From a virus (taxonomy: Duplodnaviria > Caudoviricetes): a stretch of 36,187 nucleotides of DNA. The stretch covers positions 1 through 36,187 of the IMG/VR virus record IMGVR_UViG_3300036975_000041, one strand, 5' to 3'. The position numbers were made by a program, and so were the translations under genes. The notes beneath the pieces were generated by a model that was not told where the DNA came from, did no database searches, and saw only the letters and a list, made by a program, of their open reading frames with translations. Of the stretch, positions 10,901-31,150 are shown piece by piece; position 1 is the first letter of the stretch; every line of letters starts with the position of its first letter.

Positions 10901-10964
10901 AGTTGAAGATATTACTAAAGAAATAGCTAAGAAAGTTGAGGTTGTTGATAATTCAAAAGTATAA
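7923..10964 (+). CDS. Tail tape measure protein
   Basis: 1013 aa helical Ala/Glu/Lys-rich; NIGNY motif, ANPVVLVLAAIVAGL hydrophobic patch, C-terminal 'AVQAGIVASKQPPKFKKG...GGSHESG' typical of Bacteroidota phage TMPs. Confidence 0.85.
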   Translation: MADEQIIVDIEVDSDEVKKAEKRIDELTDSIEELAAKIKDAKNRNAEFQAKVNKLNDELADGNITIEERNKELEKLIKQQHKDNVFIAESTVELQKQKRERTANIKVIQSEENSRERLRQRVALLTKEYNSLNLETVEGRKRSEQLQKELKQLNEELNEGSKAAGNFKDNIGNYPEAAEGAIISLQGVGDGMEQVGGSSAQAVGGIKTLGNAFKALLANPVVLVLAAIVAGLSALFSAFKKSASGARIMDKASAVLDGTMAVLTKKMNELGEAAEQSFKKGEDGTVGFWEALKKNVVYKFQSVIELFKAVGDGLKALWEGNTEAIEKASEKAKEALIGIVTGQTSEQLEKIADKFKETAKEANELTQAFLKLADAQLKGRASARNLEKGIAQTSAELERLTEIAGDDTRAMSEQREAAIKAGEVAQKLAMQEKALAGTRLALINQEVAVRRSAGQDIQDLLDEQADAYLAYVDAQSRAAVAAQKIAIEQRKIERDIFEQNLDILIDVGDKIKTEREKQIQDESLSLDKRKQLLEGARAALEANFDAIKKEYELYGVTAEQINEVISASDAKQANEKLKALGLNEIANNRLREIILERRQAELDFNDLQKDLSDEEISRKEKANDKIQQINEDRILSQIDNEEELKNKLIELEEAKRKSLLQSKILTKEERQAILENETLTDDEKKTLLEDKTLLEEEKQAIILESEEKIKEIENEFADKKEEKEKEKLKRRKELIQESLDNIVSITEKFAGKEAALFGKIAVNIGKAFEDGKLTATEAINGITSITQASFDAIQERRDIDLQNIELKRQKELELAGDNLEAQVEINRRYDREAAVIKLKQFKADKAKALVDIAIQTAVAVVKALPNVPLSITIGALGAVQAGIVASKQPPKFKKGVNDIVSIGGSHESGRDVDVFGVSGNQTQYFGKVEKGEVMPVIRKSAINDYMIAKLNGSFSPNKRIFQTGTPDITNVNQQSLSAEDIAAAFKLINLSVKVEDITKEIAKKVEVVDNSKV

Positions 10965-11018
10965 CATTCGTTAAAAATGCATTAAAACGCATTTTAGCTC
11001 AGTGTTATAAACAAGTGC
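10956..11018 (-). other. attC/dif-like palindromic site A (short form); may double as bidirectional terminator
   Basis: Minus strand: GCACTT GTTTATAAC actga GCTAAAATGC GTTTTAAT GCATTTTTAAC gaat GTTATACTTT; homologous to sites at 29932-30001 and 30477-30543. Confidence 0.7.
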
Positions 11019-11102
11019 TTTAAGTTTGTCACTCGTTTTAAGTGTAGTGGGTATTTGACCAAAAAAGAAAAAGCCCACCGCACTTTTGTTTTTTCAAAAC
11101 AA

Positions 11103-11375
11103 TTAGAATAAAGAACCCTGGTTAATTTTCTTAGCTTCTTCAATTTCTAATGCTCTGTTTAAAAAATGTAATCCAATTTCAGGGTCTACCAAATTTCTGA
11201 GTATTTGTATTTTATTGTGTTTTATTGGCACACCTTTTAAATTAAAGCCATATCTTCCATTAGTTACTGTTTGTTCCGAAATTGGCTTTTCGGGTTCAAC
11301 ATGTAATTTATGTACAAAAAAGTTACACCAAAAATAATACCTGCCAATTTCAACGGTAGGTCTTACTAATGGCTC
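11103..11375 (-). pseudogene. C-terminal remnant (90 codons, no start) of a phage-type DNA (cytosine-5) methyltransferase
   Basis: My translation: EPLVRPTVEIGRYYFWCNFF...KIQILRNLVDPEIGLHFLNRALEIEEAKKINQGSLF*. EPL...GRxYFWxNF and RNxVDPExG match the C-terminal half of small phage C5 MTases; the 5' half is replaced by a 62-bp duplication. Not in the ORF track. Confidence 0.7.
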
Positions 11376-12226
11376 AATCGACCTTTTCTATCTTGCCTTC
11401 TTTTTGAAGTTGTTCCAATGCTGTATTCATTTCTTTCCAGAATTATTTTTTGCCACCCCGCCTCAGTTTTTTCAAAACTGTAAAGGTTAAAAAACTCGTT
11501 TATTGTTTTCCCACTTAACCACCATTGCATAGCTGTTTCACCATCTCCATTAGTTGCACAAGTGAGCTTCCATTGTGGGTTATTTGCCATGCCCTTTGTA
11601 ATTGCTTTTTTAATAGCTGTGTAATATTTTGGGTACAAGTCAAATTCTGCTTGCCTTGCTCCTTTTCTACTTACCAAAGGGCAACCAACACAGCCGAGTC
11701 TACACGCACCAGTTTTATAGTGAGGTGCAAGTTCAATATTGTGCTTGTCTATAAACTCATATACATCATCATCTTCCCAGTCGTATATTGGGTATATATG
11801 TTGTGCTCCATTTTGCCACTTTCGGTTATCGCATTGTACATAGTCTCGGTTTTGTCTTTTACGACTTTCTACTGCCCTCACTCCCTCAAATACGTTTTTA
11901 CCAACAGAACCATACTCTTTTAAAAATTCGCAACAGTATCTATTTAATCTTGTTGGCAACCCTTTACGCTCTACAAGTTGATAAAAACTCTCATTTGGGT
12001 GCAGTATTTTTGTGTGTGGGTAAAATGTTCTTATATGTTTAATCGTACCCCTAGGGTCAATAGTGGTGTTTGTATAATAGCTATCAACTTCGGTTCTTAT
12101 TCCTGCAAGTTCAATCAGTTTATCAACTACTGCACTATCTTTACCACCACTATTGCCACTATGCAAGTTAGGCATATTTCGGTGTATCGTTTTTATAAAC
12201 TTTATCGCTTTATTTTCTAATATCAT
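11366..12226 (-). CDS. Phosphoadenosine phosphosulfate (PAPS) reductase family protein, likely Fe-S; C-terminus altered
   Basis: SGGKDS PP-loop, RYCCEFLK, GVRAVES..R, YPIYDW, RLGCVGCP. Likely start ATG 12226 (track uses 12259). The last ~23 aa are read from the duplicated 62-bp segment. Confidence 0.85.
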   Translation of the reverse strand: MILENKAIKFIKTIHRNMPNLHSGNSGGKDSAVVDKLIELAGIRTEVDSYYTNTTIDPRGTIKHIRTFYPHTKILHPNESFYQLVERKGLPTRLNRYCCEFLKEYGSVGKNVFEGVRAVESRKRQNRDYVQCDNRKWQNGAQHIYPIYDWEDDDVYEFIDKHNIELAPHYKTGACRLGCVGCPLVSRKGARQAEFDLYPKYYTAIKKAITKGMANNPQWKLTCATNGDGETAMQWWLSGKTINEFFNLYSFEKTEAGWQKIILERNEYSIGTTSKRRQDRKGRLSH

Positions 12227-12411
12227 AAAAAACCCTCCATAAAAAATAATTTTTAACATTCGTTTTTCAAATCAAAGTCGGTGCGTAATTGTCGCACAGG
12301 TCATATTACTATTCGTTATACTTTAATCCTAAAAGAAACATTACTACAGCAATCGACCTTTTCTATCTTGCCTTCTTTTTGAAGTTGTTCCAATGCTGTA
12401 TTCATTTCTTT
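11375..12411. repeat. Perfect 62-bp direct repeat (11375-11436 and 12350-12411)
   Basis: caatcgaccttttctatcttgccttctttttgaagttgttccaatgctgtattcatttcttt at both positions. Confidence 0.97.
12250..12324 (-). other. attC/dif-like site A0 at the head of the minus-strand accessory block (atypical)
   Basis: Minus strand: AAAGTATAAC gaata GTAATATGAC ct GTGCG acaatta CGCAC ... ttgaaaAAC gaat GTTAaaaa. AAAGTATAAC is the exact complement of the far end of site A; AACGAATGTTA is shared with sites A and D. Confidence 0.5.
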
Positions 12412-12498
12412 GTAAATCTCGCCCCAAAGCAAAGACTTTTTAACTTTTGTCCTTGTTTTGCCAAGGTCGGTAAGTAGTTTTAAAATTAGTTCTTTCAT
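12316..12498 (-). CDS. Small hypothetical protein (possible winged-helix fragment)
   Basis: 60 aa, coupled to the upstream HTH gene; ALEQLQKEGKIEK motif; its stop lies in the GTATAAC box. Confidence 0.55.
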   Translation of the reverse strand: MKELILKLLTDLGKTRTKVKKSLLWGEIYKEMNTALEQLQKEGKIEKVDCCSNVSFRIKV

Positions 12499-12692
12499 AC
12501 CAGAAACATTTTTCTAAATTCTTCCAAGTCATCTTGTTTAATCCTGTATTCAAGTCGTGCGCCGTGGTGAACCTGAATAGCATTAAGTCTCACTTTGTCC
12601 TTTGTTAAGCCTACACGAATATAATTTCTTACCGTTTGCGGTTCGACGCTTAACTTTTTAGCTGCTTCTTTAACTGTCAACATTTTTATCAT
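12495..12692 (-). CDS. Excisionase-like (HTH_17/MerR-type) DNA-binding protein
   Basis: MLTVKEAAKKLSVEPQTVRNYIR.G...L.A.......YRIKQDDLEEF is the AlpA/Xis-like HTH pattern. Confidence 0.8.
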   Translation of the reverse strand: MIKMLTVKEAAKKLSVEPQTVRNYIRVGLTKDKVRLNAIQVHHGARLEYRIKQDDLEEFRKMFLV

Positions 12693-12864
12693 TTTTTAAT
12701 GGACATAAACACGAAATCCCATCTCCCCAAAATTCTGATGTGATAGATTCATGTATAATTCCTTTGTTATTGTACGATTTGAGTAAATCACATGTAAATA
12801 GCACTGTTCCGAGCTTTGTTGATTCAACAGTTAAGTGTCTGCATTTATTGCAACTTAATTCCAT
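12670..12864 (-). CDS. Small Cys-rich hypothetical protein
   Basis: CxxC...C...CLCPL in 64 aa; first gene after a minus-strand TAnnTTTG box. Confidence 0.55.
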   Translation of the reverse strand: MELSCNKCRHLTVESTKLGTVLFTCDLLKSYNNKGIIHESITSEFWGDGISCLCPLKNDKNVDS

Positions 12865-12876
12865 AATTTTTTTTTA

Positions 12877-12906
12877 CAAAGATAACAAATAAACGTTAAT
12901 AACGTT
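12877..12906 (-). promoter_or_regulatory. Leftward promoter -7 box with adjacent palindrome
   Basis: TATCTTTG on the minus strand (12877-12884); AACGTT-AAT-AACGTT at 12892-12906; no clear -33 TTTG. Confidence 0.45.
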
Positions 12907-12924
12907 GTGATTTACCCTAATTTC

Positions 12925-12955
12925 TTTGAAAAGGCGTAAATGTGCTATAATTTTG
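12925..12955 (+). promoter_or_regulatory. Bacteroidota primary-sigma promoter for the head operon
   Basis: TTTG (12925-12928)-N19-TAATTTTG (12948-12955), 16 nt before the ATG. Confidence 0.7.
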
Positions 12956-12971
12956 ATAAAAAATAAATTAT

Positions 12972-14072
12972 ATGGCAAAGCCTATTTTATTATACACACC
13001 AATTTTTAGTGATACAGCTGAAAGCATTACACGACAATTATTCGATTTTCCAGCAAATGAAGAAATAGAAATATGGATGAACACCCCGGGGGGGTCTGTC
13101 AGTGCTGGTTGGTCAATATTGGCAGCCCTTAATGAGTTGAAAAGAGATGTTAATGTAACTGTATTAGGTGACGCTCAAAGCTTTGGGTTTTTCATGTTGC
13201 TTTTTGCCAACAAAGTAAAAGGTTATGATACTTCTAATTTTATGATACATAGGGCAGCTTCTTTTTGGGAGGATGTTATGACTGATGAAGAATTAAAAGA
13301 AATCGAAGACCGGAACAAAATCATAAGGGGTAAGCTAGAAGTCAGGATTAAAGAAGATAAATTCAAAGAAATTACCGGAAAATCTTTTGATGATATTTTT
13401 TCAATGGATGACCGCTTAGACGTGAATCTAACTGCAAAACAAGCAAAAGAAATAGGGCTAATTGACGAAGTAATAAGCTTGGATGTAAAAAAGAGGAAAG
13501 AAATAGAAAGCCGTTACTATGATGAAATAATGGCACTTAGTATTAATTCAAATAAAAAAAAGATGGGAAAATTAACTGATTTGATTTTCGGCGAAAAAGA
13601 CCCCGTTTTAATTGCTCAAATTGGCGAAACCCAGTTTGCTTATAGTAAACTAGAAATGGGCGCCAAAATTAAAGCAGTTGGAAAAGGTGATCACGAACCT
13701 ATTTCGGGAACTTTTGAAGCTGAGAACAAAACTGTAACTGTTGTAGAAAATGAAATCACAGCGATTACAGAAATTGACAAAAGCGGACAGGAAATAGAAG
13801 CTCTTAAAGCCGAAATAAAAGCACTTAAAGAGAATCAAATTACTGTTGAAGATGTGGCAGAAGTGATTAACAAACTTCAGGATGAGCAGGCATCAGAGCT
13901 TAACGCTATTCGTGAAATTTTGGAAAAAGCAAAATTAGCGGTTTCAAAACCAGAATTACCAGAAGGTGAATTTGTTGACGAACCAGTTGGTGAAATCTTA
14001 TCAGTAAGGGAGAGGTTAACTGCTTTGCAAAACGAAAAACACGATCAGAAACGTAAACAAAGGGAGGAATAA
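12972..14072 (+). CDS. ClpP-like prohead protease fused to a scaffold-like C-terminal region
   Basis: MNTPGGSV, AQSFG (catalytic Ser), FMIHRA (His), LTAKQAKEIGLIDEV; coiled-coil C-terminus; directly upstream of the capsid gene. Confidence 0.85.
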   Translation: MAKPILLYTPIFSDTAESITRQLFDFPANEEIEIWMNTPGGSVSAGWSILAALNELKRDVNVTVLGDAQSFGFFMLLFANKVKGYDTSNFMIHRAASFWEDVMTDEELKEIEDRNKIIRGKLEVRIKEDKFKEITGKSFDDIFSMDDRLDVNLTAKQAKEIGLIDEVISLDVKKRKEIESRYYDEIMALSINSNKKKMGKLTDLIFGEKDPVLIAQIGETQFAYSKLEMGAKIKAVGKGDHEPISGTFEAENKTVTVVENEITAITEIDKSGQEIEALKAEIKALKENQITVEDVAEVINKLQDEQASELNAIREILEKAKLAVSKPELPEGEFVDEPVGEILSVRERLTALQNEKHDQKRKQREE

Positions 14073-14075
14073 AAA

Positions 14076-15026
14076 ATGGCAGATACTTTTGTTAGCACGA
14101 ATTACAATGGTGAATTAAATGATTATTTGTATAAAGTATTGGGTCTTGGTGCCCAGACTGCGCAAAAAGGTGGTTATCATTTAATTCCAGACGTAAATTC
14201 TAAAGAAGAATTGGACTATCTGGAGACAGATGAGGATCCAATGACTGACTATACTGACGACACCCCAACAACAGGTGAAGCCAATACAACTTTGAAAAAA
14301 AGGGAAGTAGAACCAAGCAAATTTACAGTATGGGGCAAAATTACTCCGTCCGCATGGTTGCCAATTTGGAGAAAATACCGTTCACAGGGCACATTAACTC
14401 AATTGAATGCAAATCCTCAATTTTTAGGGGATGTTTTCGCAGTTGTTGGGAATGCTACTGCCAGGCAACTTGATAAATTATTTTGGCAAGGTGATAAAGC
14501 TGCTGGAGCCGCAAGTCCATTAAGGTTTATTGATGGGGTAATCAAAAAAATTGAAGCAGATAGCGACACAAATATAACATTTGTAACACCTGCTGGTTCA
14601 ATTACAAAGACAAATGTGGTTGATATTTTGGAGGCTATTTATACAGCAATGCCAGACAAATTTTTTGATGATCCTGATTTTAAAATTCACATGAATACAG
14701 GTGATTACAAATTGCTTCAATTCTTTAACAACGACGTCAAAAAAACAACAGTTGGGGTATTAGATGAAAATATACGCAAGTTATTCTTGGAAAAAAGAAT
14801 TGAGCATTTTACTAACTTGCCAGCTTCTCACATTGTAGCTGCAAAAACTATGAGTTCAGAACAATCTAATTTAGTTCTTGCTATGTATGCCTCGCTTGAA
14901 AATGAAATGATGGGATTGAAAGTCGAAAAGAAAGAGCTTTCAAACATTACTCGTTATCGTTTTGACGGGATGGCCGACGCTCAATACAGATACGGTGGTG
15001 ATATCGTTTATTACAAACCAGCTTAA
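14076..15026 (+). CDS. Major capsid protein
   Basis: 316 aa after the protease; 'TNYNGE', 'LDKLFWQGD', 'FIDGVIK' motifs of Bacteroidota phage HK97-fold capsids. Confidence 0.8.
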   Translation: MADTFVSTNYNGELNDYLYKVLGLGAQTAQKGGYHLIPDVNSKEELDYLETDEDPMTDYTDDTPTTGEANTTLKKREVEPSKFTVWGKITPSAWLPIWRKYRSQGTLTQLNANPQFLGDVFAVVGNATARQLDKLFWQGDKAAGAASPLRFIDGVIKKIEADSDTNITFVTPAGSITKTNVVDILEAIYTAMPDKFFDDPDFKIHMNTGDYKLLQFFNNDVKKTTVGVLDENIRKLFLEKRIEHFTNLPASHIVAAKTMSSEQSNLVLAMYASLENEMMGLKVEKKELSNITRYRFDGMADAQYRYGGDIVYYKPA

Positions 15027-15038
15027 ATAGGAGGTATT

Positions 15039-15386
15039 ATGTATAGAAATCAAGCTATAGCGCAAGCTACATTGACAGATACAGGGGTTGTAATCTCTGA
15101 TCCTGCTCATTTTATTGAGGATGAATTTGAGGGCGTTGTTGGATTTGCAGTTCTGGCAAATGAAGTTTCTGGAACTTTGGACGGCGATTGCCAGTTACAA
15201 GGTTCTTTAGATGGAACCAACTGGGTAAATATTGGTTCTACTGTAGCAATTGTAGACGGAGTGACTGTTTTTGTGCCACTTGGTGGAACAGTACTATATT
15301 ATAACTATTATAGAATTACAACTACAGGTGTTGGAACTCAATCCACAACCTTAGATGTAACTTATATAGCAAAAGGAAGGAATTAA
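15039..15386 (+). CDS. Putative capsid decoration/structural protein
   Basis: 115 aa beta-rich, LQGSLDGTNW motif, follows the capsid gene. Confidence 0.5.
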   Translation: MYRNQAIAQATLTDTGVVISDPAHFIEDEFEGVVGFAVLANEVSGTLDGDCQLQGSLDGTNWVNIGSTVAIVDGVTVFVPLGGTVLYYNYYRITTTGVGTQSTTLDVTYIAKGRN

Positions 15387-15388
15387 TT

Positions 15389-15970
15389 ATGGCATGTGTA
15401 TTAGAAAGTCAAAGCTTACTAGATTGTGATATCCCTCCAATTGGAGGTGTTCAGAATTTTGTAATGCTATATAATTACACTGAATGGCGTGAAATGGTAG
15501 ACGGCGGAAATGTTACTTTTGATGCTGCCGGAATGATTACCGGAATAACCAACGCTTCAGGTGTACAGGCATGGCGTTTTGATGTGCCGGATGAAACTGC
15601 TTTAGTTTTGGGTTCAGTTGATAGATTAGTTGACGGCGGAATTGATGGTTATGACCATAGTCTTAATATGTCAATTATTGATACTAAGCAAGCTCAAAAA
15701 AATGTTTTAAAAGCAATGTCTTTTGAAAAAGTTGTTGCTGTTGTTTATCGGAAGAATGGTACTGGTGAAGTTTACGGAGGTGAGCAAGGATTAAAGAGTA
15801 CAACTAACACTTATAACCCAAACGATCCATCATTCGGTGGGGTTATTCCTGTACAGTTGGCTACAAGCTCACGTACAAGTCCTGAAAACTTGATGCCAGC
15901 AGACGTATTTGATACAGATATTGCAACTACAAAAGCATTAATTGAAAGTCTTAACGTACCAGGTGTTTAA
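15389..15970 (+). CDS. Putative major tail tube protein
   Basis: MAC..., 'DC..PIGGV', 'VVAVVYRKNG...VYG...GL' pattern, 193 aa, in the high-expression part of the operon. Confidence 0.65.
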   Translation: MACVLESQSLLDCDIPPIGGVQNFVMLYNYTEWREMVDGGNVTFDAAGMITGITNASGVQAWRFDVPDETALVLGSVDRLVDGGIDGYDHSLNMSIIDTKQAQKNVLKAMSFEKVVAVVYRKNGTGEVYGGEQGLKSTTNTYNPNDPSFGGVIPVQLATSSRTSPENLMPADVFDTDIATTKALIESLNVPGV

Positions 15971-15986
15971 TTTTAAATCTTAGATT

Positions 15987-16220
15987 ATGGCAAAGAAAGC
16001 AAGTAAAGATGTAGAAGAAACTACAGAAGTAAAAGAAGAAAAAAAGCCTAAAAAAGAGGTTAAAAAGTACAAGGTAAAAGATGAAAAAGAACTCGGTTTT
16101 CGCAGGAGACATTATCATACAGGTGAAGAACTTGTCTTGATAATTGCAGGCAAGGAGTATGATGAAGAAACTTATAACCAATTCAATCATAGAGCTAAGG
16201 CAATATTTTTTGAATCTTAA
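15987..16220 (+). CDS. Small charged hypothetical protein
   Basis: 77 aa, Lys/Glu-rich N-terminus. Confidence 0.55.
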   Translation: MAKKASKDVEETTEVKEEKKPKKEVKKYKVKDEKELGFRRRHYHTGEELVLIIAGKEYDEETYNQFNHRAKAIFFES

Positions 16221-16245
16221 TTACATTCAAATAGCTTTATTTATT

Positions 16246-16275
16246 AGCCCGTCCGCTACTTCGGGCGGGCTTTTT
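16246..16275 (+). terminator. Rho-independent terminator upstream of the portal gene
   Basis: AGCCCGTCCG-ctactt-CGGGCGGGCT followed by a T tract. Confidence 0.85.
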
Positions 16276-16286
16276 AATTAAATAAC

Positions 16287-18435: not shown

Positions 18436-18494
18436 TTTGGTCAATATTAAAATAGTTCGTATATTTGAACTATAAAACAATTAAAAATTAGCAA
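18436..18494 (+). promoter_or_regulatory. Early promoter/operator copy 1
   Basis: TTTG(18436-39)-N20-TATATTTG(18460-67); the -7 box lies inside inverted repeat ATAGTTC-N8-GAACTAT; 18450-18494 is identical to 19726-19770. Confidence 0.8.
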
Positions 18495-18883: not shown

Positions 18884-18941
18884 AAAAAAGAGTAAGCCGA
18901 AAATCTTAAAAAGAGTAGGCCAAAGTGACAAATTAATAATT

Positions 18942-19709: not shown

Positions 19710-19770
19710 ATTGCTTATACGTTAGAAATAGTTCGTATATTTGAACTATAAAACAATTAAAAATTAGCAA
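19710..19770 (+). promoter_or_regulatory. Early promoter/operator copy 2
   Basis: 45-bp exact repeat (19726-19770) of 18450-18494, including TATATTTG and the inverted repeat. Confidence 0.8.
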
Positions 19771-20101: not shown

Positions 20102-20235
20102 AAGAACTATTAAAAAAAGCAATAAAAAGAAATCAAGAAACAAACGAGCGCCTTTCTTTAGCCTTACACAAGCAAAAAGAGTTTGAAGCTGAAAAAGAAG
20201 AAAACAAAATTAATTGGATAATCGAAAATCATTAA
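20098..20235 (+). CDS. Small hypothetical protein (45 aa)
   Basis: ATGA overlap with the upstream stop; MKELLKKAIKRNQETNERL...; below the ORF-track cutoff. Confidence 0.5.
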   Translation: MKELLKKAIKRNQETNERLSLALHKQKEFEAEKEENKINWIIENH

Positions 20236-20240
20236 TAATT

Positions 20241-21050
20241 ATGAAAACAATTTATTTACAAGACGAAAATTTTGAATGGAAAAAATTTGAATATGAAAAT
20301 ATTTCAGATTTGTCTAGTGAATTTGAAAAAAGTAATATAAAACTTGGTAACTGGTGCAAACTTGGTGACGAGTGCGAACTCGGTAACTCTGCCGAAATCG
20401 GATACTTTGCCGAAATCGGGGACTTTGCCAAAATCGGGGACTCTGCCAAAATCGGATACTTTGCCGAAATCGGGGACTCTGCCAAAATCGGGGACTCTGC
20501 CAAAATCGGGGACTCTGCCAAAATCGGGGACTCTGCCAAAATCGGATACTCTGCCGAAATCGGGGACTCTGCCGAAATCGGTAACTCTGCCAAAATCGGT
20601 AACTCTGCCAAAATCGGATACTTTGCCAAAATCGGATACTCTGCCGAAATCGGGGACTCTGCCGAAATCGGTAACTCTGCCGAAATCGGATACTTTGCCA
20701 AAATCGGATACTTTGCCGAAATCGGGGACTCTGCCGAAATCGGATACTTTGCCGAAATCGGGGACTCTGCCAAAATCGGGGACTCTGCCAAAATCGGATA
20801 CTTTGCCGAAATCGGGGACGAAATTAAAATAATAAGAGGGCTATTTATTTTAGGATCAAAACATCAGTTAACATATACAGGCAATAGCACTATTTCAATA
20901 GGATGCCACAATATGACTATAAAAGAATGGTTAAAAAATGGCTTAGAAATAGCAAAAAAAGAAGGATATTCAGAAAATGAAATTACTGAATATAAAATGT
21001 ATATTAATTTAATTAAACGATTTAAAAAGTTACATTATGAAACAAGATAA
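20241..21050 (+). CDS. Hexapeptide-repeat (left-handed beta-helix) protein
   Basis: 24 units of A(E/K)IG(D/Y/N)(S/F) plus 3 degenerate units; C-terminal 'ISIGCH...EW' domain; ATG 20241 preferred. Confidence 0.85.
   Translation: MKTIYLQDENFEWKKFEYENISDLSSEFEKSNIKLGNWCKLGDECELGNSAEIGYFAEIGDFAKIGDSAKIGYFAEIGDSAKIGDSAKIGDSAKIGDSAKIGYSAEIGDSAEIGNSAKIGNSAKIGYFAKIGYSAEIGDSAEIGNSAEIGYFAKIGYFAEIGDSAEIGYFAEIGDSAKIGDSAKIGYFAEIGDEIKIIRGLFILGSKHQLTYTGNSTISIGCHNMTIKEWLKNGLEIAKKEGYSENEITEYKMYINLIKRFKKLHYETR
20391..20822 (+). repeat. Tandem array of 24 x 18-bp units
   Basis: Consensus GCC(G/A)AAATCGG(GG/AT/TA)ACT(C/T)T, counted directly. Confidence 0.97.
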
Positions 21051-21562: not shown

Positions 21563-21856
21563 ATGAAATGTAAAATTTGTGGTCGTGAAACGAGAAAAGA
21601 CAGGCCGGTATGTATTGGATGTTATTCTCTGAGGGAGGTTGTCAAAAAAAAGGACAAAGCCCCTAAAAGTAAAGTAGAAAAAGCTACTAATCATTTATTA
21701 AAAAATCCAGGTTTAACGATAATTAGCTGGATAATACCTCCGGTACACCTTCAAAAATCGAAAAATGGAGGTTATAAATTAAAAGATGGAAGACATAGGG
21801 TTTGTGCATATAAATTGCTAGGGATAAAGTCAATTAAGGCAAAAAAAGCGTTTTAA
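21563..21856 (+). CDS. Zn-finger protein with ParB/sulfiredoxin-like motif
   Basis: CxxC-X10-CxxC N-terminus; PPVHL...YKLKDGRHRVCAYKLLG. Confidence 0.6.
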   Translation: MKCKICGRETRKDRPVCIGCYSLREVVKKKDKAPKSKVEKATNHLLKNPGLTIISWIIPPVHLQKSKNGGYKLKDGRHRVCAYKLLGIKSIKAKKAF

Positions 21857-21924
21857 TGATTTTTTTTGAATGTTATATTAAAAATACGTTAGAAAATAAT
21901 TATTAATTTTGAAAAAAAATAACT

Positions 21925-24748: not shown

Positions 24749-24990
24749 AAACAAAAAATGTAAAAGACATAAAAATAGGTGATAAAGTTCTATTGCCTGA
24801 AACTGGATTTGAATATGTTGTTACCTATATAACTGACGCAAGCATATTAATAAATAGGGCTGATAAAAAATATTGGATACCAAAATCATTAATTGTAATA
24901 TTTGATTCGCTGTTAAGTACCTCTGGTTATAGGCTTTTTAAATTTAAAAATCTTCCTGAATGGTTTATAGCTAAAAATGAAATAGAATGA
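24745..24990 (+). CDS. Hypothetical protein (SH3-like beta barrel)
   Basis: DIKIGDKV...WIPKS motif; ATGA coupling. Confidence 0.55.
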   Translation: MKTKNVKDIKIGDKVLLPETGFEYVVTYITDASILINRADKKYWIPKSLIVIFDSLLSTSGYRLFKFKNLPEWFIAKNEIE

Positions 24991-25088
24991 CAATAGTATT
25001 TATAATAACAGCTATTTTAGCCTTAATAGGCATGTTTGGGCTTGCCTATCTGGATAAGATAATCCGAAAGTTAAAAAAGAAAAATTAA
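24987..25088 (+). CDS. Single-TM micropeptide (33 aa)
   Basis: MTIVFIITAILALIGMFGLAYLDKIIRKLKKKN; ATGA overlap. Confidence 0.5.
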   Translation: MTIVFIITAILALIGMFGLAYLDKIIRKLKKKN

Positions 25089-25166
25089 TACAGTATGAAG
25101 AAATTACTAACAAAAATTAAAGCTAAGATATATTATTTCTGGCTTTACAACGAAAAGCCTTTTTAA

Positions 25167-25325
25167 ATGAAACAATCAACCGAACTACGTAAGCAGATAA
25201 CAGAAGTTGAAAAACTCCTGGCTGAAGAAAAGAACTTCCTCAAAAGAGAGGTTCTAAGGTATGAAAAAAGAGTATTAGAAATGAAACTTAATAAATGTTT
25301 AAATGCACGAAAAGAACTTATTTAA
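25167..25325 (+). CDS. Small coiled-coil protein (52 aa)
   Basis: MKQSTELRKQITEVEKLLAEEKNFLKREVLRYEK... Confidence 0.5.
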   Translation: MKQSTELRKQITEVEKLLAEEKNFLKREVLRYEKRVLEMKLNKCLNARKELI

Positions 25326-25401
25326 CAAAATAATCCCTGCAATACTTATTATTTTAATGGTAGTTGCTTTGGTAGGATTTGTAATTGGAATATTAATTTA
25401 A
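25303..25401 (+). CDS. Single-TM micropeptide (32 aa)
   Basis: MHEKNLFNKIIPAILIILMVVALVGFVIGILI. Confidence 0.45.
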   Translation: MHEKNLFNKIIPAILIILMVVALVGFVIGILI

Positions 25402-25405
25402 TGCT

Positions 25406-25837
25406 ATGAAAAAATATAAATTAAAAACCAAAAGAGGGCAGACAGTATTCAGGATTGAAATAAATCTACGTTCTGACCAATACAATAAGACTTCGTTAAA
25501 TCCGGACGGGATATATATAACTGAGTTAAAAATAGTCCATCAGACAGAAAGAAAAATTGCATTATCTGATACATGGATAACAACATTGGACAGACAAGGA
25601 ATTAATGAAAAAAAAGATAAATATTGGCACTATTTAGAGGATATTAATATATCAATTAAAACAATGGAAACATACTTTGCAAATGGGATATTTGCAACTT
25701 GTTATACTCTAAAAAATCCTAAAAAAATAATTGAAAAAATGAAGCATGAAATTCATTTAAAAGTAAATCGAGAATATGGATTTTTATTTGATGGATTGGC
25801 CAATAAAATAGATAGTTTAAAAGTTTTTGAAAAATAA
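25406..25837 (+). CDS. Hypothetical protein
   Basis: 143 aa ORF. Confidence 0.6.
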   Translation: MKKYKLKTKRGQTVFRIEINLRSDQYNKTSLNPDGIYITELKIVHQTERKIALSDTWITTLDRQGINEKKDKYWHYLEDINISIKTMETYFANGIFATCYTLKNPKKIIEKMKHEIHLKVNREYGFLFDGLANKIDSLKVFEK

Positions 25838-25852
25838 TTAGTATATTTGTAG

Positions 25853-25940
25853 TGATTAGTGAGGTAATCAAAAAGACATTGGGACAAACCCACAGAAGCC
25901 ATTTTGAGAGTGCCTCACCACTTGATAAATGGCTTTTTTA
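25853..25940 (+). ncRNA. Candidate structured leader/small RNA with complementary (kissing) loops
   Basis: TATATTTG at 25842-49; hairpin TGATTA-GTGAGG-TAATCA; hairpin AAGCCATTT..GAGTG-CCTCAC-CACTT..AAATGGCTT plus T tract. Confidence 0.55.
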
Positions 25941-25949
25941 TTTTATACT

Positions 25950-26660
25950 ATGGCTAAACGATTTATAGATACTGGATTATTTGATGACCCCTGGTTTATG
26001 GATTTATCTAAAGACGGGAAAATACTTTGGATTTATTTGATAACCAAATGTGACCATGCTGGCATTATAGATATTAATGAAAAACTTTGCAAATTTCAAA
26101 CCGGAATACAAAAACTTGAAACAGTTATTAAAGAGTTAGGATACCGTTTACAAACAGTTAACGAACACTTTATTTTTATTCCAAAATTTTTTAAATATCA
26201 ATATCCAAACTTTCCAGATAAGCGATTTAGAGCGGCGGAGAGTGCATTCAATAGACTACAAGAATTAGGAATAGACGAAGAAAAATTAAAGACTTACCTA
26301 ACACTTAGTAAAGACTTACCTAAGTCTTATAGTATAAGTAATAGTAAAGGTAATAGTAAAGGTAATGGTAGCGGAAATCATTTTTTTAAAAATTCTCCTT
26401 ATTTTGATTTTGAATACCTGAAGAAATCAATTGATGAAAAATATCATAAATATGATTTATCCTATTACTATGATTCTGCTGTAAACTATTCAGAAAGCAA
26501 GGGCGCAATGTATAAAGATTGGCTGGCTGCCATTAGGAATTGGATAAACAAGGACGAAAAAGAGGGTAAGGCTAAATACATTAAGCAAAAAAAATACACT
26601 GATGAAGAAATAATAAACGGCTTAGCCCCTCAACCAAAAAAGATTTTCAGGAATGAATGA
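25950..26660 (+). CDS. Phage replication initiator (replisome organiser-like)
   Basis: MAKRFIDTGLFDDPWFMDLS..K.LW.YL.T.CDHAGI N-terminal wHTH-type domain, low-complexity linker, KDWLAAIRNW C-terminal motif; upstream of the primase-helicase. Confidence 0.75.
   Translation: MAKRFIDTGLFDDPWFMDLSKDGKILWIYLITKCDHAGIIDINEKLCKFQTGIQKLETVIKELGYRLQTVNEHFIFIPKFFKYQYPNFPDKRFRAAESAFNRLQELGIDEEKLKTYLTLSKDLPKSYSISNSKGNSKGNGSGNHFFKNSPYFDFEYLKKSIDEKYHKYDLSYYYDSAVNYSESKGAMYKDWLAAIRNWINKDEKEGKAKYIKQKKYTDEEIINGLAPQPKKIFRNE
26119..26370 (+). repeat. Candidate origin iterons within the initiator gene
   Basis: AAACAGTTA-like units at 11-bp spacing (26119, 26130, 26141, 26152); TAAAGACTTACCTAA x2 (26287, 26309); TAATAGTAAAGG x2 (26339, 26351). 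Confidence 0.5.
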
Positions 26661-28320
26661 TGAAATACAAAAATATCTTAATCATGGTTTTAACGTGATT
26701 CCTGTTAATCAAGATAAGACCCCCGCATGCGATTGGAAACATTTCAAAAATAATAAAATTGAAAACCTAAAACTATTTACAACTGATTGCATAGGTATTG
26801 TTTGTGGCAAGATTAGCGATAGTTTAGAAGTATTAGATTTTGACAATCACAACGGCACGGCAAAAGAAAACTTATCTAATTTCTTAAATCACGACTTAAT
26901 TAAACCTATTTACGAAAAATACAAACTTCCGGTTGTAAAAACTCAAAGCGGTGGGTTTCATATTTATTATCGTTGCGATAAAATCGAAGGAAATCAAAAG
27001 CTTGCAATGGTAAAACTAAATGGCAAACCAGATGCAATAATTGAAACACGTGGAGAAGGTGGCTATATATTAGCACCTCCAAGTAAAGGATATGAATTTA
27101 TAAGGAATTCTTTTGAAGATTTACAATTCATTACAGAACAGGAACGACAATTGATAATAGAATTTGCAAAAACATTTAACAAACATGAAAAGTCTATTAA
27201 AAAATACAAAGCAAATACTGATAATGATAAACCTGGAAATATTTATGATAATACACCAGAAGCCATTGAAGAAGCAAAGTCAGCTTTGAAATCAATAGGT
27301 TGGGAAGATTTAGGTTTTAATAATTGTTGGAGGCGTCCAGGTAAAAACAAAGGAATCAGCGCAACTTTTGGAAATATAGCGCCAAATGTATTTTATTCTT
27401 TTAGTTCAAATGTAGAATATTTTGATTTTGAAACTGCATACACACCTTTTTCGATAGTTAGCTTAATAAAATATAATGGTGATTTTAGCAAATTTGCTTC
27501 TGAATTAGCAAAACGGTATAAACTAAACGGAAAAGCAAAAGAACCGGAACCAAGCAAAGAAGATTTAAAAGCTGAATTACTAAAATACTACAATGACCCT
27601 GATATAAACATTGAAAAACCTCCAATGGTAATCGGTATCAGGACACAAAATAACATAGCTCCTATAATGACATTAGGCAATTTAAGTGTTTTAAAAGGTG
27701 CTGCAAAAAGTAAAAAAACCTATTTAATGTCAATGTTTGCGGCTTCTGCAATAGCAAATTCTGAACTATTTAGGGATATAATTACAGATATTCCAAAAAA
27801 TAAAAGGCAGGTTGTTATTTTTGATACAGAACAAAGCAAATTCCATTCTGCAAGGTTGTCTAATCGGATTATAAAAATGTCTTATAGCAATGCGGAACAT
27901 TTTGGAAGTTTTAATTTTAGAGGTTTAGAGGCAGAAAAAATAATACAATTAATAAATTATGCTTGTGATTTATATTCACAATTGGGTGTTTTATTCATTG
28001 ACCAGGTTGCAGATTTAATGAAATCAGTTAATGAAGAAAAAGAAGCAATACAGGTTGTTAGATTTTTAGAACATCTTAGCGATAAAAAGCAGATTCATAT
28101 TTGTGTTGTAATCCACCAAAATAAGTTAAATAATTTTGCTCAGGGGTGGTTAGGTACTCAATTAATGAAAAAAGCAGAAACTATAATCGAAGTTGAAAAA
28201 GACCATGAATTTGCCAATATGAGCACTGTTAAGGCAAATCTTACCAGAGATATTGGATTTGAAGATTTTAAATTTTTAATAAACGATAACGGCTATCCAG
28301 AGGTAGCAAAAACATTTTAA
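26653..28320 (+). CDS. Prim-Pol (AEP) primase-polymerase fused to a RecA-type (AAA_25-like) helicase
   Basis: VLDFD, TQSGGFHIYY, ETRGEGGYILAPPS; Walker A GAAKSKKT, DTEQS, Walker B LFIDQVADL, VIHQN. Confidence 0.85.
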   Translation: MNDEIQKYLNHGFNVIPVNQDKTPACDWKHFKNNKIENLKLFTTDCIGIVCGKISDSLEVLDFDNHNGTAKENLSNFLNHDLIKPIYEKYKLPVVKTQSGGFHIYYRCDKIEGNQKLAMVKLNGKPDAIIETRGEGGYILAPPSKGYEFIRNSFEDLQFITEQERQLIIEFAKTFNKHEKSIKKYKANTDNDKPGNIYDNTPEAIEEAKSALKSIGWEDLGFNNCWRRPGKNKGISATFGNIAPNVFYSFSSNVEYFDFETAYTPFSIVSLIKYNGDFSKFASELAKRYKLNGKAKEPEPSKEDLKAELLKYYNDPDINIEKPPMVIGIRTQNNIAPIMTLGNLSVLKGAAKSKKTYLMSMFAASAIANSELFRDIITDIPKNKRQVVIFDTEQSKFHSARLSNRIIKMSYSNAEHFGSFNFRGLEAEKIIQLINYACDLYSQLGVLFIDQVADLMKSVNEEKEAIQVVRFLEHLSDKKQIHICVVIHQNKLNNFAQGWLGTQLMKKAETIIEVEKDHEFANMSTVKANLTRDIGFEDFKFLINDNGYPEVAKTF

Positions 28321-28323
28321 ATT

Positions 28324-28536
28324 ATGGAACAAATGAGATGTAAAACTTGTGGAAGATTTATAAAGTATGATTCTGGCTGGAGCTGGGCTTTAATAGTATC
28401 ATGGTTTGGAGTAGATGGTGAAATATTTAGATGCGAAAAATGTACGGATAAATATGGAATAATTGAATCAAACGCAAAACCTTATGATGGTAATATGAAA
28501 CCATATCAAGGGATAAATTTAAATTATGCACCATGA
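28324..28536 (+). CDS. Small Zn-finger protein
   Basis: CKTCGRFI...CEKC. Confidence 0.6.
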   Translation: MEQMRCKTCGRFIKYDSGWSWALIVSWFGVDGEIFRCEKCTDKYGIIESNAKPYDGNMKPYQGINLNYAP

Positions 28537-29012
28537 AAAAATATAAAATAAATCTAATCCTGAATAATATCTGTAATCGGATGTATTCAAAAAAATTAAA
28601 TAAGATGAAAAAAAAGACACTAAGTAAATATAAACAAGAACTTTGGAAGTTATTTTCGCTTTATATTAAGAAAAAATACGAAACTGAGGAAGGTTGGTGT
28701 AGATGTTACACTTGTCAAAAGCCTTTAAAAATTGGTACTTCTGATTGTCAAAGCGGACATTATTACACAAAAAAAGGTTATCCAGCTCTTTTTTTTGATG
28801 AAAACAACGTAAGACCACAGTGTTATCATTGCAATATTAATTTAAGTGGTAATATTGTTATATTTGGAGAAAACCTAAAAAATGAAATAGGATATAATGC
28901 TATGGAAATTATGAAATCAAAGCGACATGATCAAGTCAAAAGAACAAAATCAGATTATATCGAATTGATTGAATTTTACAAGGATAAGCTTGCACAATTA
29001 ACTAATAATTAG
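28533..29012 (+). CDS. NinG/Rap-like HNH-type recombination endonuclease
   Basis: FSLYI, CYTC, GHYY, FDENNVRPQCYHCN; true start may be ATG 28605. Confidence 0.8.
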   Translation: MKKYKINLILNNICNRMYSKKLNKMKKKTLSKYKQELWKLFSLYIKKKYETEEGWCRCYTCQKPLKIGTSDCQSGHYYTKKGYPALFFDENNVRPQCYHCNINLSGNIVIFGENLKNEIGYNAMEIMKSKRHDQVKRTKSDYIELIEFYKDKLAQLTNN

Positions 29013-29021
29013 TAAATTAGT

Positions 29022-29435
29022 ATGAAATTTCTAGTTAAAAAACAGTTTGGGAAACTTATTCCGGTTTATAATTCTGATGCTGAAAAGTTAAAAGCTTGTA
29101 AGCTTAAAGAAGGTGAGGTTTACGAAGTTGAGATAAAGAAAAAAAGGAATTACGAATTTCATAAGAAGTATTTTGCCTTGATTAATCTTTGTTATGACAA
29201 TCAAGATGTATTTGATGAGTTTGACAATCTAAGAGATTATTTAACCTGCAAATCTGGTTTTTATATAAAAATAACTACTCCAGATGGAGAAATGATAAAA
29301 CCAAAGTCAATAAGCTTTGCAAATATGGATAATATCGAATTTGAGCAATTATATCAGAAGACAATCGGTGCCATTTGTAAGTTTATTGATGTTGAAGAAA
29401 AAGACATTTTAGATGAAATTGTTAATTATATGTAA
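29022..29435 (+). CDS. DUF1367-like phage protein
   Basis: KRNYEFHKKYFAL and PKSISFANMD..EFEQLY motifs; its stop lies in the ATGTAAC box. Confidence 0.7.
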   Translation: MKFLVKKQFGKLIPVYNSDAEKLKACKLKEGEVYEVEIKKKRNYEFHKKYFALINLCYDNQDVFDEFDNLRDYLTCKSGFYIKITTPDGEMIKPKSISFANMDNIEFEQLYQKTIGAICKFIDVEEKDILDEIVNYM

Positions 29436-29492
29436 CGGGCTTGTGGTATGAAACCGACACCACCACAGTAATAATTTTAATTTGAAAACGAA
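29427..29492 (+). other. attC/dif-like half site B0 at the head of the second accessory block
   Basis: TATATGTAAC (29427-36) pairs, with two G-T pairs, with GTTATGTATA (30534-43) at the far end; followed by GGTATGAAAC and the shared tttgaaaacgaa motif. Confidence 0.45.
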
Positions 29493-29945
29493 ATGGAAGC
29501 AAAAAATTTTAGAATAGGAAACTTCGTAAATCTCAAAAACTGGCAAGATGAAATAAGTTTTTTTGGTGAATTTGATATATCGCAAAAAGGATTAGATAAA
29601 CTGGTAAAAACAGGCGATGGAAACGCTATGATATTAACTATTACAAGTAAAGAACTTGAGCTTTTAGCTTATGGTTGTGAATTAGATTTTTATAGTTACA
29701 AAGAAATATTGCCAATAAAAATTACTGAAAAATGGCTTATTGATTTAGGGTTTAATAAATTCCCCGGAAGCGGACAGTTGTTCGATACTGATGATTTTTG
29801 GTCTGGCAGACTTATAAATGAAGGTTTTTTTGAGATTTCACACTTAGAATTAACGTTGAAGTATGTTCATGATTTGCAGAATGTTTTTTTTGCGTTAACC
29901 GGTAGAGAACTTCAATTGAAAAACGAATGTAGCACTTGTGGTTAA
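29493..29945 (+). CDS. Hypothetical phage protein (candidate cassette cargo)
   Basis: FRIGN...PIKITEKWL..LGF...LKYVHDLQNVFFALTGREL pattern of Bacteroidota phage hypotheticals; stop within site C. Confidence 0.7.
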   Translation: MEAKNFRIGNFVNLKNWQDEISFFGEFDISQKGLDKLVKTGDGNAMILTITSKELELLAYGCELDFYSYKEILPIKITEKWLIDLGFNKFPGSGQLFDTDDFWSGRLINEGFFEISHLELTLKYVHDLQNVFFALTGRELQLKNECSTCG

Positions 29946-30001
29946 ACGATGGGTGTAAACTGTCGTTTTAATGCGGTTTTACCCCGTGTTAGCTGCTGGG
30001 C
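29932..30001 (+). other. attC/dif-like palindromic site C (short form)
   Basis: GCACTT GTGGTTAAAC gatg GGTGTAAACTGTC GTTTTAAT GCGGTTTTACC ccgt GTTAGCTGCTGGGC. Confidence 0.7.
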
Positions 30002-30090
30002 GTGAAATTAGCAGATACTTCAATTGAAATACAAAAATAAAAAGTGAAGGGTACGGCTTACTGACCCATTAATTAAATACATTTTACAAA

Positions 30091-30420
30091 ATGGAAGAAA
30101 AGCAAATTAAATTTGAGAGCTGGGCAATAGTTGAGTTATTTGGACACAACCAACTTGCCGGAAAAGTAACAACTGAAAACATAGCCGGACAGGAATTTGT
30201 ACGGATAGATGTTCCAAAAACAACTAAAGTGCCAGCTTTTACTAAGTACCATTTACCAAGTGCAGTTTATGGATTAACGCCAGTTGATGAAGATTACGCA
30301 ACCCGTATGGCTGACAGGATTAATGCACAGCCTATAAACGATTATAAGCATAACGAAGTAATCCGTGAGATTATTAAAGAAAAGCTGGCAGAAATGGGGA
30401 CGAAAGCACTTGATTTTTAA
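30091..30420 (+). CDS. Hypothetical phage protein (candidate cassette cargo)
   Basis: WAIVELFGH..LAG.V..E.IAG..FVRIDVP; lies between sites C and D. Confidence 0.7.
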   Translation: MEEKQIKFESWAIVELFGHNQLAGKVTTENIAGQEFVRIDVPKTTKVPAFTKYHLPSAVYGLTPVDEDYATRMADRINAQPINDYKHNEVIREIIKEKLAEMGTKALDF

Positions 30421-30476
30421 TTGCGGGTGGGGCTTTTTGTTTTCTCCGCATCCGCACGATGTTGATTAAATGAACT

Positions 30477-30543
30477 GCCCCAGCCTTGCAGCTAACGTTG
30501 AGCTAAACAACGTTTTAATGTTGTTTAACGAATGTTATGTATA
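30477..30543 (+). other. attC/dif-like palindromic site D (short form)
   Basis: GCCCCAGCCTT GCAGCTAAC gttga GCTAAACAAC GTTTTAAT GTTGTTTAAC gaat GTTATGTATA. Confidence 0.75.
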
Positions 30544-30583
30544 TTTGCAAGCAGGTGTACTATGTCTAACTAAAAAAATAGCA

Positions 30584-30850
30584 ATGAGTATGTTTTATAT
30601 TATTTTTTCAATAGCATTTATAGTTATGGTAATTTGGGTTATTTATTTGCTAATAACAAGAAATGAAAAACCAAAAGAACATATCGATGGTAAGACACTT
30701 ATTGAATTATTAGTAATCGGACAAACTGAAATGACCGATTCAGATAAGATAGTATGGATTTCAAAACTTATTAACCAGGTTGATTTCACAAAACTTGAAA
30801 TTTGGCAGGTGCATGGATTTTTTAATTTAATAAACAGGATAAAAAGATGA
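30584..30850 (+). CDS. Membrane-anchored hypothetical protein
   Basis: N-terminal TM helix from ATG 30584; the track's upstream extension runs through site D. Confidence 0.55.
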   Translation: MSMFYIIFSIAFIVMVIWVIYLLITRNEKPKEHIDGKTLIELLVIGQTEMTDSDKIVWISKLINQVDFTKLEIWQVHGFFNLINRIKR

Positions 30851-31020
30851 AAAAAGACACAGAAGTAACATTTATTATTTACCCAGTTCATAAAAACGGG
30901 ATGCAAGCCTCTGGAATTGCAGTTAGTATAAAAGATAGCAAAGCGGCATATTCGCAGGCATTAGCTGAAGCCAAATTAAGAAGTAGGCTATCTGATTTCC
31001 CTGAATGGTCATTTTATTAA
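30847..31020 (+). CDS. Small hypothetical protein (57 aa)
   Basis: MKKDTEVTFIIYPVHKNGMQASGIAVSIKD...; ATGA overlap. Confidence 0.55.
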   Translation: MKKDTEVTFIIYPVHKNGMQASGIAVSIKDSKAAYSQALAEAKLRSRLSDFPEWSFY

Positions 31021-31150
31021 AATAACGGAAATAATATTAGCTGATTGCCCAACCAAAATAGTAGAAACTTAATAAAATATACAGACTTATGAGAACAAAT
31101 AAACTTTCAAAAAAGCTCGGCAATTTGCCTATATTTAGTGTTATAGCTAG
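31019..31150 (+). other. attC-like site E (long form, ~70-nt spacer)
   Basis: ATAAC ggaaat AATATTAGC tg ATTGCC ... GGCAAT tt GCCTATATT tagt GTTAT; the arms pair imperfectly. Confidence 0.5.

Follow-up and report, generated by a model that had tools for sequence, protein, structure and literature searches.

The accessory genes of this phage lie among hairpin sites, and the question they raise is whether genes are exchanged at these sites as cassettes and by which enzyme. The first-pass annotation of the window (the whole 36,187-nt stretch of DNA analyzed here) had proposed such a capture system. We put a probability of roughly 0.8 on the reading that sites A, C, D and E belong to a covarying hairpin family that heads swappable units, that they are likely integron-like recombination sites, and that the phage would use, or once used, an enzyme from its host or from another phage.

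Hairpin sites and cassettes in the window

Three of the sites are short hairpins built around CGTTTTAATG. Site A (10962-11007, minus strand, 46 nt) closes the first array; read on the opposite strand, its GTTA coincides with the stop codon region of the tape-measure gene. Site C (29944-29991, plus, 48 nt) has AAAC instead of TAAC as its left core, likely TAAC plus one added A, and site D (30493-30537, plus, 45 nt) has both cores intact. These had been described as ~55-bp sites; the sites are real and laid out as described, but the cores span 45-48 nt. Their paired stems, the invariant centre and the GC(A)CTTG upstream of all three were confirmed in the sequence. Site E (31023-31143, plus), rightly listed earlier as a related atypical site, is a long-type site of 121 nt with an ATG in its loop, the final site ahead of the terminase small subunit. 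The DNA common to the window and locus L070 at E runs only from TAAC to GTTA, and because this match lies between the cores only, the right end of a hairpin can also be a boundary. Site B0 (12254-12318, minus), listed alongside E, does have a long-type left arm and leader but lacks a matching right arm. Site C0 (29433-29492, plus), which the earlier list did not contain, consists of a left arm and leader heading the gene at 29493, its right arm being absent. Site F (21849-21876, plus) is what remains of a short site, with centre and right half present and the left core lost (model match E 0.043). Its TAA is the stop codon of a ParB-like gene and it heads the recombination/replication genes, so the statement that no site lies within the structural or replication operons needs qualifying.

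The sites do not bracket one accessory block, as had been thought. Instead they fall into two short arrays, both decayed and one on each strand (10962-12318, minus, and 29433-31143, plus), separated by the head, portal, early and replication genes. Damage is seen in the mutated core of C and in the half-sites B0, C0 and F, and a short-pattern search of the window recognized no attI-like TAAC half-site. C, D and E lie within 1.2 kb in a record that has no integrase, which matches a CALIN in layout only.

The full motif was absent from all 300 sequences simulated from the window with an order-2 Markov model, a post hoc comparison given that the motif was drawn from A, C and D, and CGTTTTAATG is present in four copies against a simulated mean of 0.11 and maximum of 2 (order-2 Markov, likewise post hoc). 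The 8-mer GTTTTAAT by itself is not enriched (11 vs. 7.2 in the window). In a generic inverted-repeat scan A and D did no better than shuffles, in a generic AAC...GTT fold scan the window sites were indistinguishable from chance, and free folding of the coding strand is weak (z of -2.2 for A, -1.9 for D, -0.2 for C and +1.2 for E). Because the scans and the free folding are weak, we place the weight on the site family and not on the window hairpins alone.

Array 1 carries on the minus strand a C5 DNA methyltransferase remnant (11103..11378), the C-terminal 91 codons of ~208 aa, behind which a non-coding cassette tail extends to A. There are 49 longer homologs, the best 86% identical and many with PF00145; head and N-terminus have been lost here. 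The PAPS-reductase-family gene (11366..12226, minus) is a cassette body whose homolog, L300, is a complete cassette with a CGTTTTAATG site at its head and matching ends. The break between these two genes lies away from any site: it is the duplication that produced a 62-bp perfect repeat (copy 1 at 11375..11436, copy 2 at 12350-12411; contig depth 79.5 vs. 41-48), and it cut the tail of the PAPS cassette. In array 2, on the plus strand, the cassette gene at 29493..29945 (phrog_10066) has a homolog at L306 that is 87% identical. The best-preserved cassette is the unit from C to D (29947..30495), composed of hairpin C, leader, gene (30091-30420, 109 aa, no assigned function) and tail, with ends complementary across 9 nt, cores included. 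The stretch from D to E holds two small ORFs (30587..31020, plus) and is not a clean cassette, its ends mismatching (2/4); the ends of B0-A do not match either. Searches with gene 30587, and with the methyltransferase remnant in viral contigs, each gave a single weak match with no usable flanks, and homologs of NinB, encoded by the phage along with exonuclease and NinG homologs, were too distant for breakpoint mapping. Contigs from two sequencing runs, one of them possibly the source of the window, contained no excision joints, which is evidence neither way since contigs drop rare forms. RNA-library pieces overlap parts of both arrays and may be DNA.

The hairpin family and the boundaries of its units

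The earlier proposals to look for covariation in the stems and for further copies in Bacteroidota phages and hosts both led to positive results. The site family was found at 129 viral loci, from which ~1000 copies are extrapolated (the scan covered 8/64 parts), and at 124 cellular loci; among the 80 listed, 58 have Bacteroidota titles. Across 105 distinct viral sites Watson-Crick pairing holds at 6.9 of 8 stem pairs, scored at positions left free by the search pattern, against 4.0 with shuffled partners (maximum 4.5 in 500), and all four pair types are present at pairs 1-3. A bulged T occurs in 62 of the 70 bulged viral sites (A and D are without it), and upstream of the hairpin T stands at -7 in 88% of 134 viral sites. 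On the coding strand G.T exceeds A.C by 15 to 1 at stem pairs 4-5 and by 17 to 10 over nine pairs, which indicates a modest strand polarity; an RNA hairpin would give an equal bias. The exact GC(A)CTTG occurs at most 12 nt upstream in 5/134 viral sites and is cassette tail, and the tail motif GTGGGCTTTT preceding A and D precedes only 3 of 132 sites and hence is not family-wide. A genome-wide search with model R1 gave 1/50, with only 118 candidates scored per genome, too few to be informative. Measured against the definition of attC (RYYYAAC...GTTRRRY outer boxes, inner boxes and conserved pairing), the family shows the covariation, the box anatomy and unit-specific complementary ends.

Breakpoints had been expected at G|TT, but the coding-strand junctions in L306, L130, L300/L301, Freya and Danklef are at the left (T)AAC. 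The homology of L306 with the window stops at C's left core, L130 shares DNA from the right end of C to the TAAC of D, and L300 and L301 part at the TAAC following the PAPS gene. Homologs thus change partners at site cores, which bears out the idea of accessory genes as cassettes; ongoing swapping by this phage is not supported, its arrays being damaged and several sites broken. Among 128 sites, 8/10 pairs that share downstream DNA only have a common hairpin (background 4%), compared with 0/2 pairs that share upstream DNA only; L027 and L062 have common downstream DNA, yet unlike hairpins. Unit ends match in 6/16 next-site pairs, against 1/199 unrelated pairs and 2% of 149 same-site controls. 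The order of a unit is (T/C)AAC core, hairpin, GTTA, leader, gene, tail and next core, leader and tail often being complementary. Each hairpin thus heads its cassette, the mirror image of an integron.

Isolates of the cultured marine Polaribacter phages Freya and Danklef differ in their arrays, and 7/7 of these differences break at AAC. Freya_1, 2, 5, 8 and 9 differ from Freya_10 in blocks whose junctions share AAC or CAAC only, Freya_6 has an additional ~470-bp unit with AAC at each end, and Danklef_3 lacks a 781-bp methylase unit, with the break at TAAC; Danklef_1 and Danklef_5 are identical over the region compared. A TAAC half-site before the recombinase gene is the right-hand junction in 5/6 Freya comparisons, the exception being Freya_8, and the recombinase gene is truncated in all five Danklef records. 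These arrays consist of long-type sites like E, with CGTTTTAATG sites absent. The main text of the Freya paper does not mention cassettes, integrons, deletions or insertions, and its supplements may treat the isolate differences.

An array-linked recombinase and competing explanations

The stated absence of a recombinase was confirmed: the record has no tyrosine recombinase. The co-occurring enzyme that the first-pass annotation had suggested looking for was found in 9/28 phage records that carry sites; in 6, its gene lies downstream on the strand of the sites, at a distance of up to about 2.1 kb. It is also present in 14/51 sampled Bacteroidota genomes. A host or helper enzyme for this phage is plausible. 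Downstream of the array the gene is co-directional in phages and convergent in the 9 chromosomal examples observed, and L071, L011, L061, Freya, Leef and Ingeline have a TAAC half-site a short way upstream of it. Five full-length array-linked proteins score 159-217 bits against the integron-integrase model TIGR02249 (cut-off 265), and in alignments to IntI4 the enzymes split into two segments and come out about 48 residues shorter, the IntI insertion being absent. The recombinase falls outside the XerD clade, and a strong site is found near 0/15 XerD loci and 5/19 loci of the array recombinase family (a stricter cut, chosen afterwards), both of which argue against the host XerCD/dif machinery once suggested; at a loose threshold the counts are 3/15 and 8/19, no clear excess. 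The array-linked enzyme is thus neither XerD nor IntI. The Freya enzyme is 37% identical to the short-site-linked enzyme, on a long branch whose placement is unsure. Five site-bearing records of small phages, each with a completeness of 91% or more (G004, G074, G076, G077 and G088), have no recombinase match.

The first-pass annotation knew of no formal description for Bacteroidota phages, but passages of Qi et al. 2023 (PMC9892861) had already treated this site type, predicting and assaying CALIN sites of Polaribacter phage P12002L as classical attC. P12002L is a Bacteroidota phage with no integrase and with its sites among DNA methyltransferase genes; the passages concerned read their "divergent directions" as mosaicism and name no cognate enzyme (PMC9892861). 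We find that P12002L_attC1 has the short-type layout (TAAC, covarying stem, CGTTTTAATG, TGTTA) and that P12002L_attC2 corresponds to a terminal TAAC site read on its reverse strand; IntI1 recombined the latter at G|TT (PMC9892861, section 3.4), equivalent to AA|C on the coding strand, which favors our preferred explanation. The arrays could still be ordinary CALINs, with classical attC sites served by a classical host IntI: in P12002L, HattCI called attC at this site type, and the neighboring attC2 was a substrate of IntI1 (PMC9892861). We nevertheless consider this highly improbable, as the CGTTTTAATG-type attC1 was the sole one of the six sites there that IntI1 did not recombine (PMC9892861), the hairpin heads its gene and does not tail it, the array enzymes fall short of the IntI score and lack the IntI residues, and complete integrons are described as rare in Bacteroidota in the part of PMC9024848 that deals with them. 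Still less probable is that site A acts like an attP and the whole phage is a giant cassette integrating at host arrays or dif in the manner of CTXphi and XerCD. Outside the cores, the two flanks of array 1 can pair over 6 nt, such that an empty site would pair fully, an excisionase-like HTH gene adjoins, and P12002L has a comparable nested match, but nested flank matches occur in only 2/45 and are not general, the two closest phages have no site at the position of A, a search of 401 Bacteroidota genomes for a related portal gene, and with it a related prophage, found none (one query, without positive control), and by inspection the layout is unlike the 28-bp dif consensus.

That the hairpins act as RNA, as terminators, processing sites or translation-control elements, is very unlikely as their main role. 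Their coding-strand position between co-oriented genes (an ORF starts on the same strand within 200 nt of 62/71 sites), the G.T bias and a terminator-like hairpin read from the sequence at A's position in two related phages all fit an RNA. However, Rfam covariance models matched no site (the sole window match, DUF805b at 18887, is unrelated), no intrinsic terminator was called at A or B0 (10800-13000 scanned), inspection of C, D and E found no G+C-rich stem with a T run, and RNA leaves unexplained the matching unit ends, the AAC breakpoints and the adjoining recombinase; the sites, A especially, may have a secondary RNA role. It is unlikely, though less so than the foregoing, that this phage gained ready-made array pieces from other phages, through homologous or illegitimate recombination, and that the sites never recombined in place here. 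The exonuclease, NinG and NinB homologs, the 62-bp duplication off any site, the many broken window sites and the five recombinase-free records agree with it, against which stand the L306 and L130 homologies ending exactly at cores and the precise Danklef_3 unit difference without an intact enzyme of its own; it differs from our preferred explanation solely in the place of recombination.

Proposed mechanism, relatives and significance

Recombination at the hairpin family would proceed as follows. The coding strand would fold into the hairpin, likely while single-stranded during replication, and the recombinase would bind the paired TAAC/GTTA and inner TAAA/TTTA boxes and exchange one strand at AA|C. 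The ends of the excised circle would complete a fully paired site, and the circle would then insert at another core. The arrays of this phage would be decayed leftovers of such events, with a DNA methyltransferase, a PAPS-reductase-family gene and unassigned genes; the cores of D and E are still intact. CTXphi attP and the pdif modules of Acinetobacter also rely on an enzyme in trans, XerCD, acting on inverted 28-bp dif pairs, and a folded single-stranded substrate is proposed for CTXphi as it is here; unlike them, the present family has 45-127-nt hairpins in direct order and a linked enzyme outside the XerD clade. The PeSL of T4-type phages, promoter-bearing stem-loop repeats thought to act through homology, are likewise recurring intergenic hairpins flanking variable small phage genes, whereas the junctions here share 3-4 nt only and other arrays have a dedicated recombinase. 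Integrons, as outlined in sections of PMC8618304 and PMC8138268, comprise IntI, attI and attC cassettes. The likeness lies in tandem one-gene units, in imperfect hairpins with paired outer and inner boxes, in unit-specific complementary ends and in a simple terminal site adjoining a tyrosine recombinase gene. The difference is that genes face the opposite way with respect to the site (in an integron, each attC follows its gene on the 3′ side) and that the recombinase lacks the IntI catalytic-domain insertion and sits downstream of the array.

The site type itself was known from attC1 of P12002L; to the P12002L work our analysis adds that the exchange point is the left core at AAC, that the hairpin comes first and that a non-IntI recombinase is linked to arrays. 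No non-IntI, mirror-oriented cassette system in Bacteroidota turned up in the literature covered, most subscription journals being outside it. We lean towards a broader view in which Bacteroidota and their phages have a second, independent integron, with a small Xer-like recombinase devoid of the IntI insertion and a coding-strand hairpin before each gene. The "integrases" of Freya, Leef and Ingeline would then be cassette shufflers and not prophage integrases, and enzyme-less phages such as this one and Danklef would use the same pool of DNA methylases and PAPS-reductase-like genes via the host's copy. The window is a modest, decayed example of the system, and Freya and Danklef offer cultured phages with a cultured host whose isolates already differ by exact units. 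If true, hairpin recombination without the IntI insertion would alter views on the evolution of single-strand recombination, and the system would account for how lytic phages restock anti-restriction methylases. The family is common in Bacteroidota and their phages although integrons are reported as nearly absent there in the relevant part of PMC9024848, and a major route by which Bacteroidota and their viruses exchange genes may have escaped IntI-based tools.

Hairpin sites and their relatives

The short-type attC-like hairpins A, C and D, with cores of 46, 48 and 45 nt, are as the first-pass annotation described them, and its finding that the window holds no recombinase stands for tyrosine recombinases, of which none was found there. 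The single bracket of sites around the accessory genes gives way to two arrays on opposite strands: array 2 (C0-C-D-E, 29433-31143, plus strand), flanked by NinB and the terminase small subunit, and array 1 (B0-A, 10962-12318, reverse strand), in a variable slot with the tape-measure gene on one side and the head-protease gene on the other. Taken as lone hairpins, A, C and D are weak; the full site motif, itself defined from these sites, occurred 0 times in 300 simulated genomes. A model built from 51 sites (A, C and D included) recovers these three and a half-site, F, at 21823-21877. Site E is of the long type and is shared with another locus (L070) from core to core; in B0 and C0 the right arm is lost.

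A search pattern that fixed only TAAC, CGTTTTAATG and TGTTA matched 129 viral loci in the 8 of 64 parts scanned and 124 cellular loci, with Bacteroidota titles in 58 and other titles in 22 of the 80 cellular loci listed. Stem positions left free were paired in 6.9 of 8 columns in viral sites (105 distinct ones; 4.0 when partners were shuffled) and in 5.9 in cellular sites (122; 3.8 shuffled), kinship being ignored in both cases. Family sites occupy gaps between co-oriented genes: a same-strand start follows the site in 62 of 71, and the upstream gene's stop is the TAA of TAAC in 24 of 71. Two small phage records with terminal repeats, G003 (L409-L411) and G004 (L442-L444), have several sites and lack a tyrosine recombinase; four sites in G004 are of almost the same stem type as A.

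Sites of this kind have been in print since Qi et al. (2023; PMC9892861), who describe a CALIN in Polaribacter phage P12002L. The attC1 of this phage is of exactly the short CGTTTTAATG type and its attC2 is the array's terminal TAAC site on the reverse strand; the sites are therefore already known as predicted attC, though the first-pass annotation was aware of no formal description for Bacteroidota phages. According to the same paper, IntI1 recombined all of six sites but P12002L attC1, and used attC2 at the position equal to AA|C on the coding strand. In the literature searched, no description was found of site orientation, enzyme or breadth of the family.

Unit boundaries and decay of the arrays

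By sequence comparison, the hairpin belongs with the DNA after it, not before it. It is common to 8 of 10 pairs that share only downstream DNA vs 0 of 2 that share only upstream DNA. The genes of the window itself fit this pattern. For the homolog of gene 29493 the DNA match ends at the left core of C, and for that of gene 30091 it runs from the right end of C to the TAAC of D, this homolog being flanked by collapsed TAAC...GTTA stubs. A PAPS-reductase homolog forms a complete unit with a CGTTTTAATG site at its head, and two such homologs diverge at the TAAC past the gene. Neither a model match nor a clear hairpin was found ahead of the distant gene-30091 homologs L132 and L133 or the PAPS homologs L296-L298, so those genes occur outside intact units too. 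Complementary unit ends were seen in 6 of 16 next-site pairs vs 1 of 199 unrelated pairs; a second analysis gave 6 of 16, and 3 of 3 once 13 pairs with an intervening candidate site were excluded. By end matching, C-D is the sole clean unit in the window.

Two other loci show reduced forms. In L130 (1885-1900 and 2395-2480) hairpins have shrunk to TAAC-N5-7-GTTA stubs, with a tiny gene-less unit that has complementary ends. On the minus strand of L071 (~3800-3950) a unit, judged by eye, carries no ORF; its cargo is instead a repeated, tRNA-like sequence that is non-coding and has long complementary ends.

Array 1 carries a gene of the PAPS-reductase family together with the final 91 codons of a C5 methyltransferase, and a 62-bp duplication that was found to be real joins the two; in two relatives the slot holds other small genes and is closed by a terminator-like hairpin. 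Decay of the window arrays went by ordinary rearrangement. The tape-measure gene and a convergent ORF (12316-12498) have identical final codons before TAAC, and array 1 is therefore bracketed by a 10-bp inverted repeat (10956-10965, 12314-12323); its removal would bring the two stops together around a fully paired site.

The phage record and its host

The record is linear, 36,187 bp in length, and belongs to a tailed phage whose genes include those for tail, tape measure, head protease, portal, exonuclease, primase, NinG, NinB and terminases. CheckV estimates 59% completeness. Since both window ends fall in the tail-gene region when gene order is set against the relative G001, and the gap there holds a similar amount of DNA, little is probably missing. 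Promoter-like motifs of the Bacteroidota type (TTTG-N17-22-TAnnTTTG) number 8 in the window vs 3.6 expected; together with the distribution of hairpin sites, these point to a Bacteroidota host.

Several other features were observed. A 45-bp perfect direct repeat (18436-18494 and 19726-19770) lies ahead of the early genes, its first copy overlapping a Bacteroidota-type promoter-like motif. The Rfam DUF805b RNA motif at 18887-18921 scores 46.5 bits, over the gathering score. The gene at 20214-21050 (phrog_5353) has an 18-bp tandem repeat (hexapeptide repeats), and a 51-bp direct repeat (951-1001 and 1092-1142) lies within ORF 470-1597.

A recombinase beside arrays and its relation to integrons

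In six large phage records, a short site is followed, at most ~2.1 kb further on and with the same orientation, by a gene for a tyrosine recombinase of 265-280 aa. Recombinase matches occur in 9 of 28 site-bearing phage records (3 of the 10 near-complete records of that search), and the same family is present in chromosomes of 14 of 51 genomes sampled. In chromosomal cases with a nearby site, the gene lies downstream in convergent orientation (4 site-first and 5 gene-first cases). A simple motif detected the gene in 4 of 80 chromosomal loci with long flanks; most chromosomal short sites are therefore without a recombinase within 5 kb.

A search of named phages with the recombinase picked out genes annotated as 'integrases' in Freya and Leef, both Polaribacter phages, and in the Cellulophaga phage Ingeline. 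Each of them has small genes in front of it, along with TAAC...GTTA sites and a terminal half-site, TAAC. The paper on the isolation (PMC8776804) takes the gene to indicate a temperate lifestyle. Two cautions bear on the comparison that follows: the Freya enzyme is a divergent family member, and the Freya and Danklef arrays have long-type sites like E and none of the short type. Around the array, ~10 kb was compared with Freya_10 for six of nine other Freya isolates (Freya_1, 2, 5, 6, 8 and 9; Freya_3, 4 and 7 match Freya_2 and Freya_6 in length). Five differ from Freya_10 in blocks whose junctions have AAC or CAAC alone in common, and Freya_6 has one extra unit with AAC at either end. Danklef_3 and Danklef_5 differ at TAAC, where an adenine-methylase unit of 781 bp is missing from Danklef_3. 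All seven isolate events, each a gain or a loss, thus fall at AAC, and the differences lie directly upstream of the 'integrase' (Freya_10, L461, 48075-48920 and 1-4962; L464-L476). At 3-4 nt, the overlaps are, we infer, too short to have come from homologous recombination or from an error in assembly. Because the recombinase gene is truncated in all five Danklef records, the enzyme is suggested to act there in trans, though the event may predate the truncation.

The cassette-capture interpretation of the first-pass annotation holds in part: the system behaves as an integron cassette array would if read from the other strand. By both the integrase and the polarity tests it is no integron; the array-linked recombinases fall below the IntI cut-off and have no IntI insertion. 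Nor is it an XerCD/dif system, and the array-linked family is separate from XerD. What makes the finding of interest is the system, which lends itself to testing, more than the window's decayed copy.
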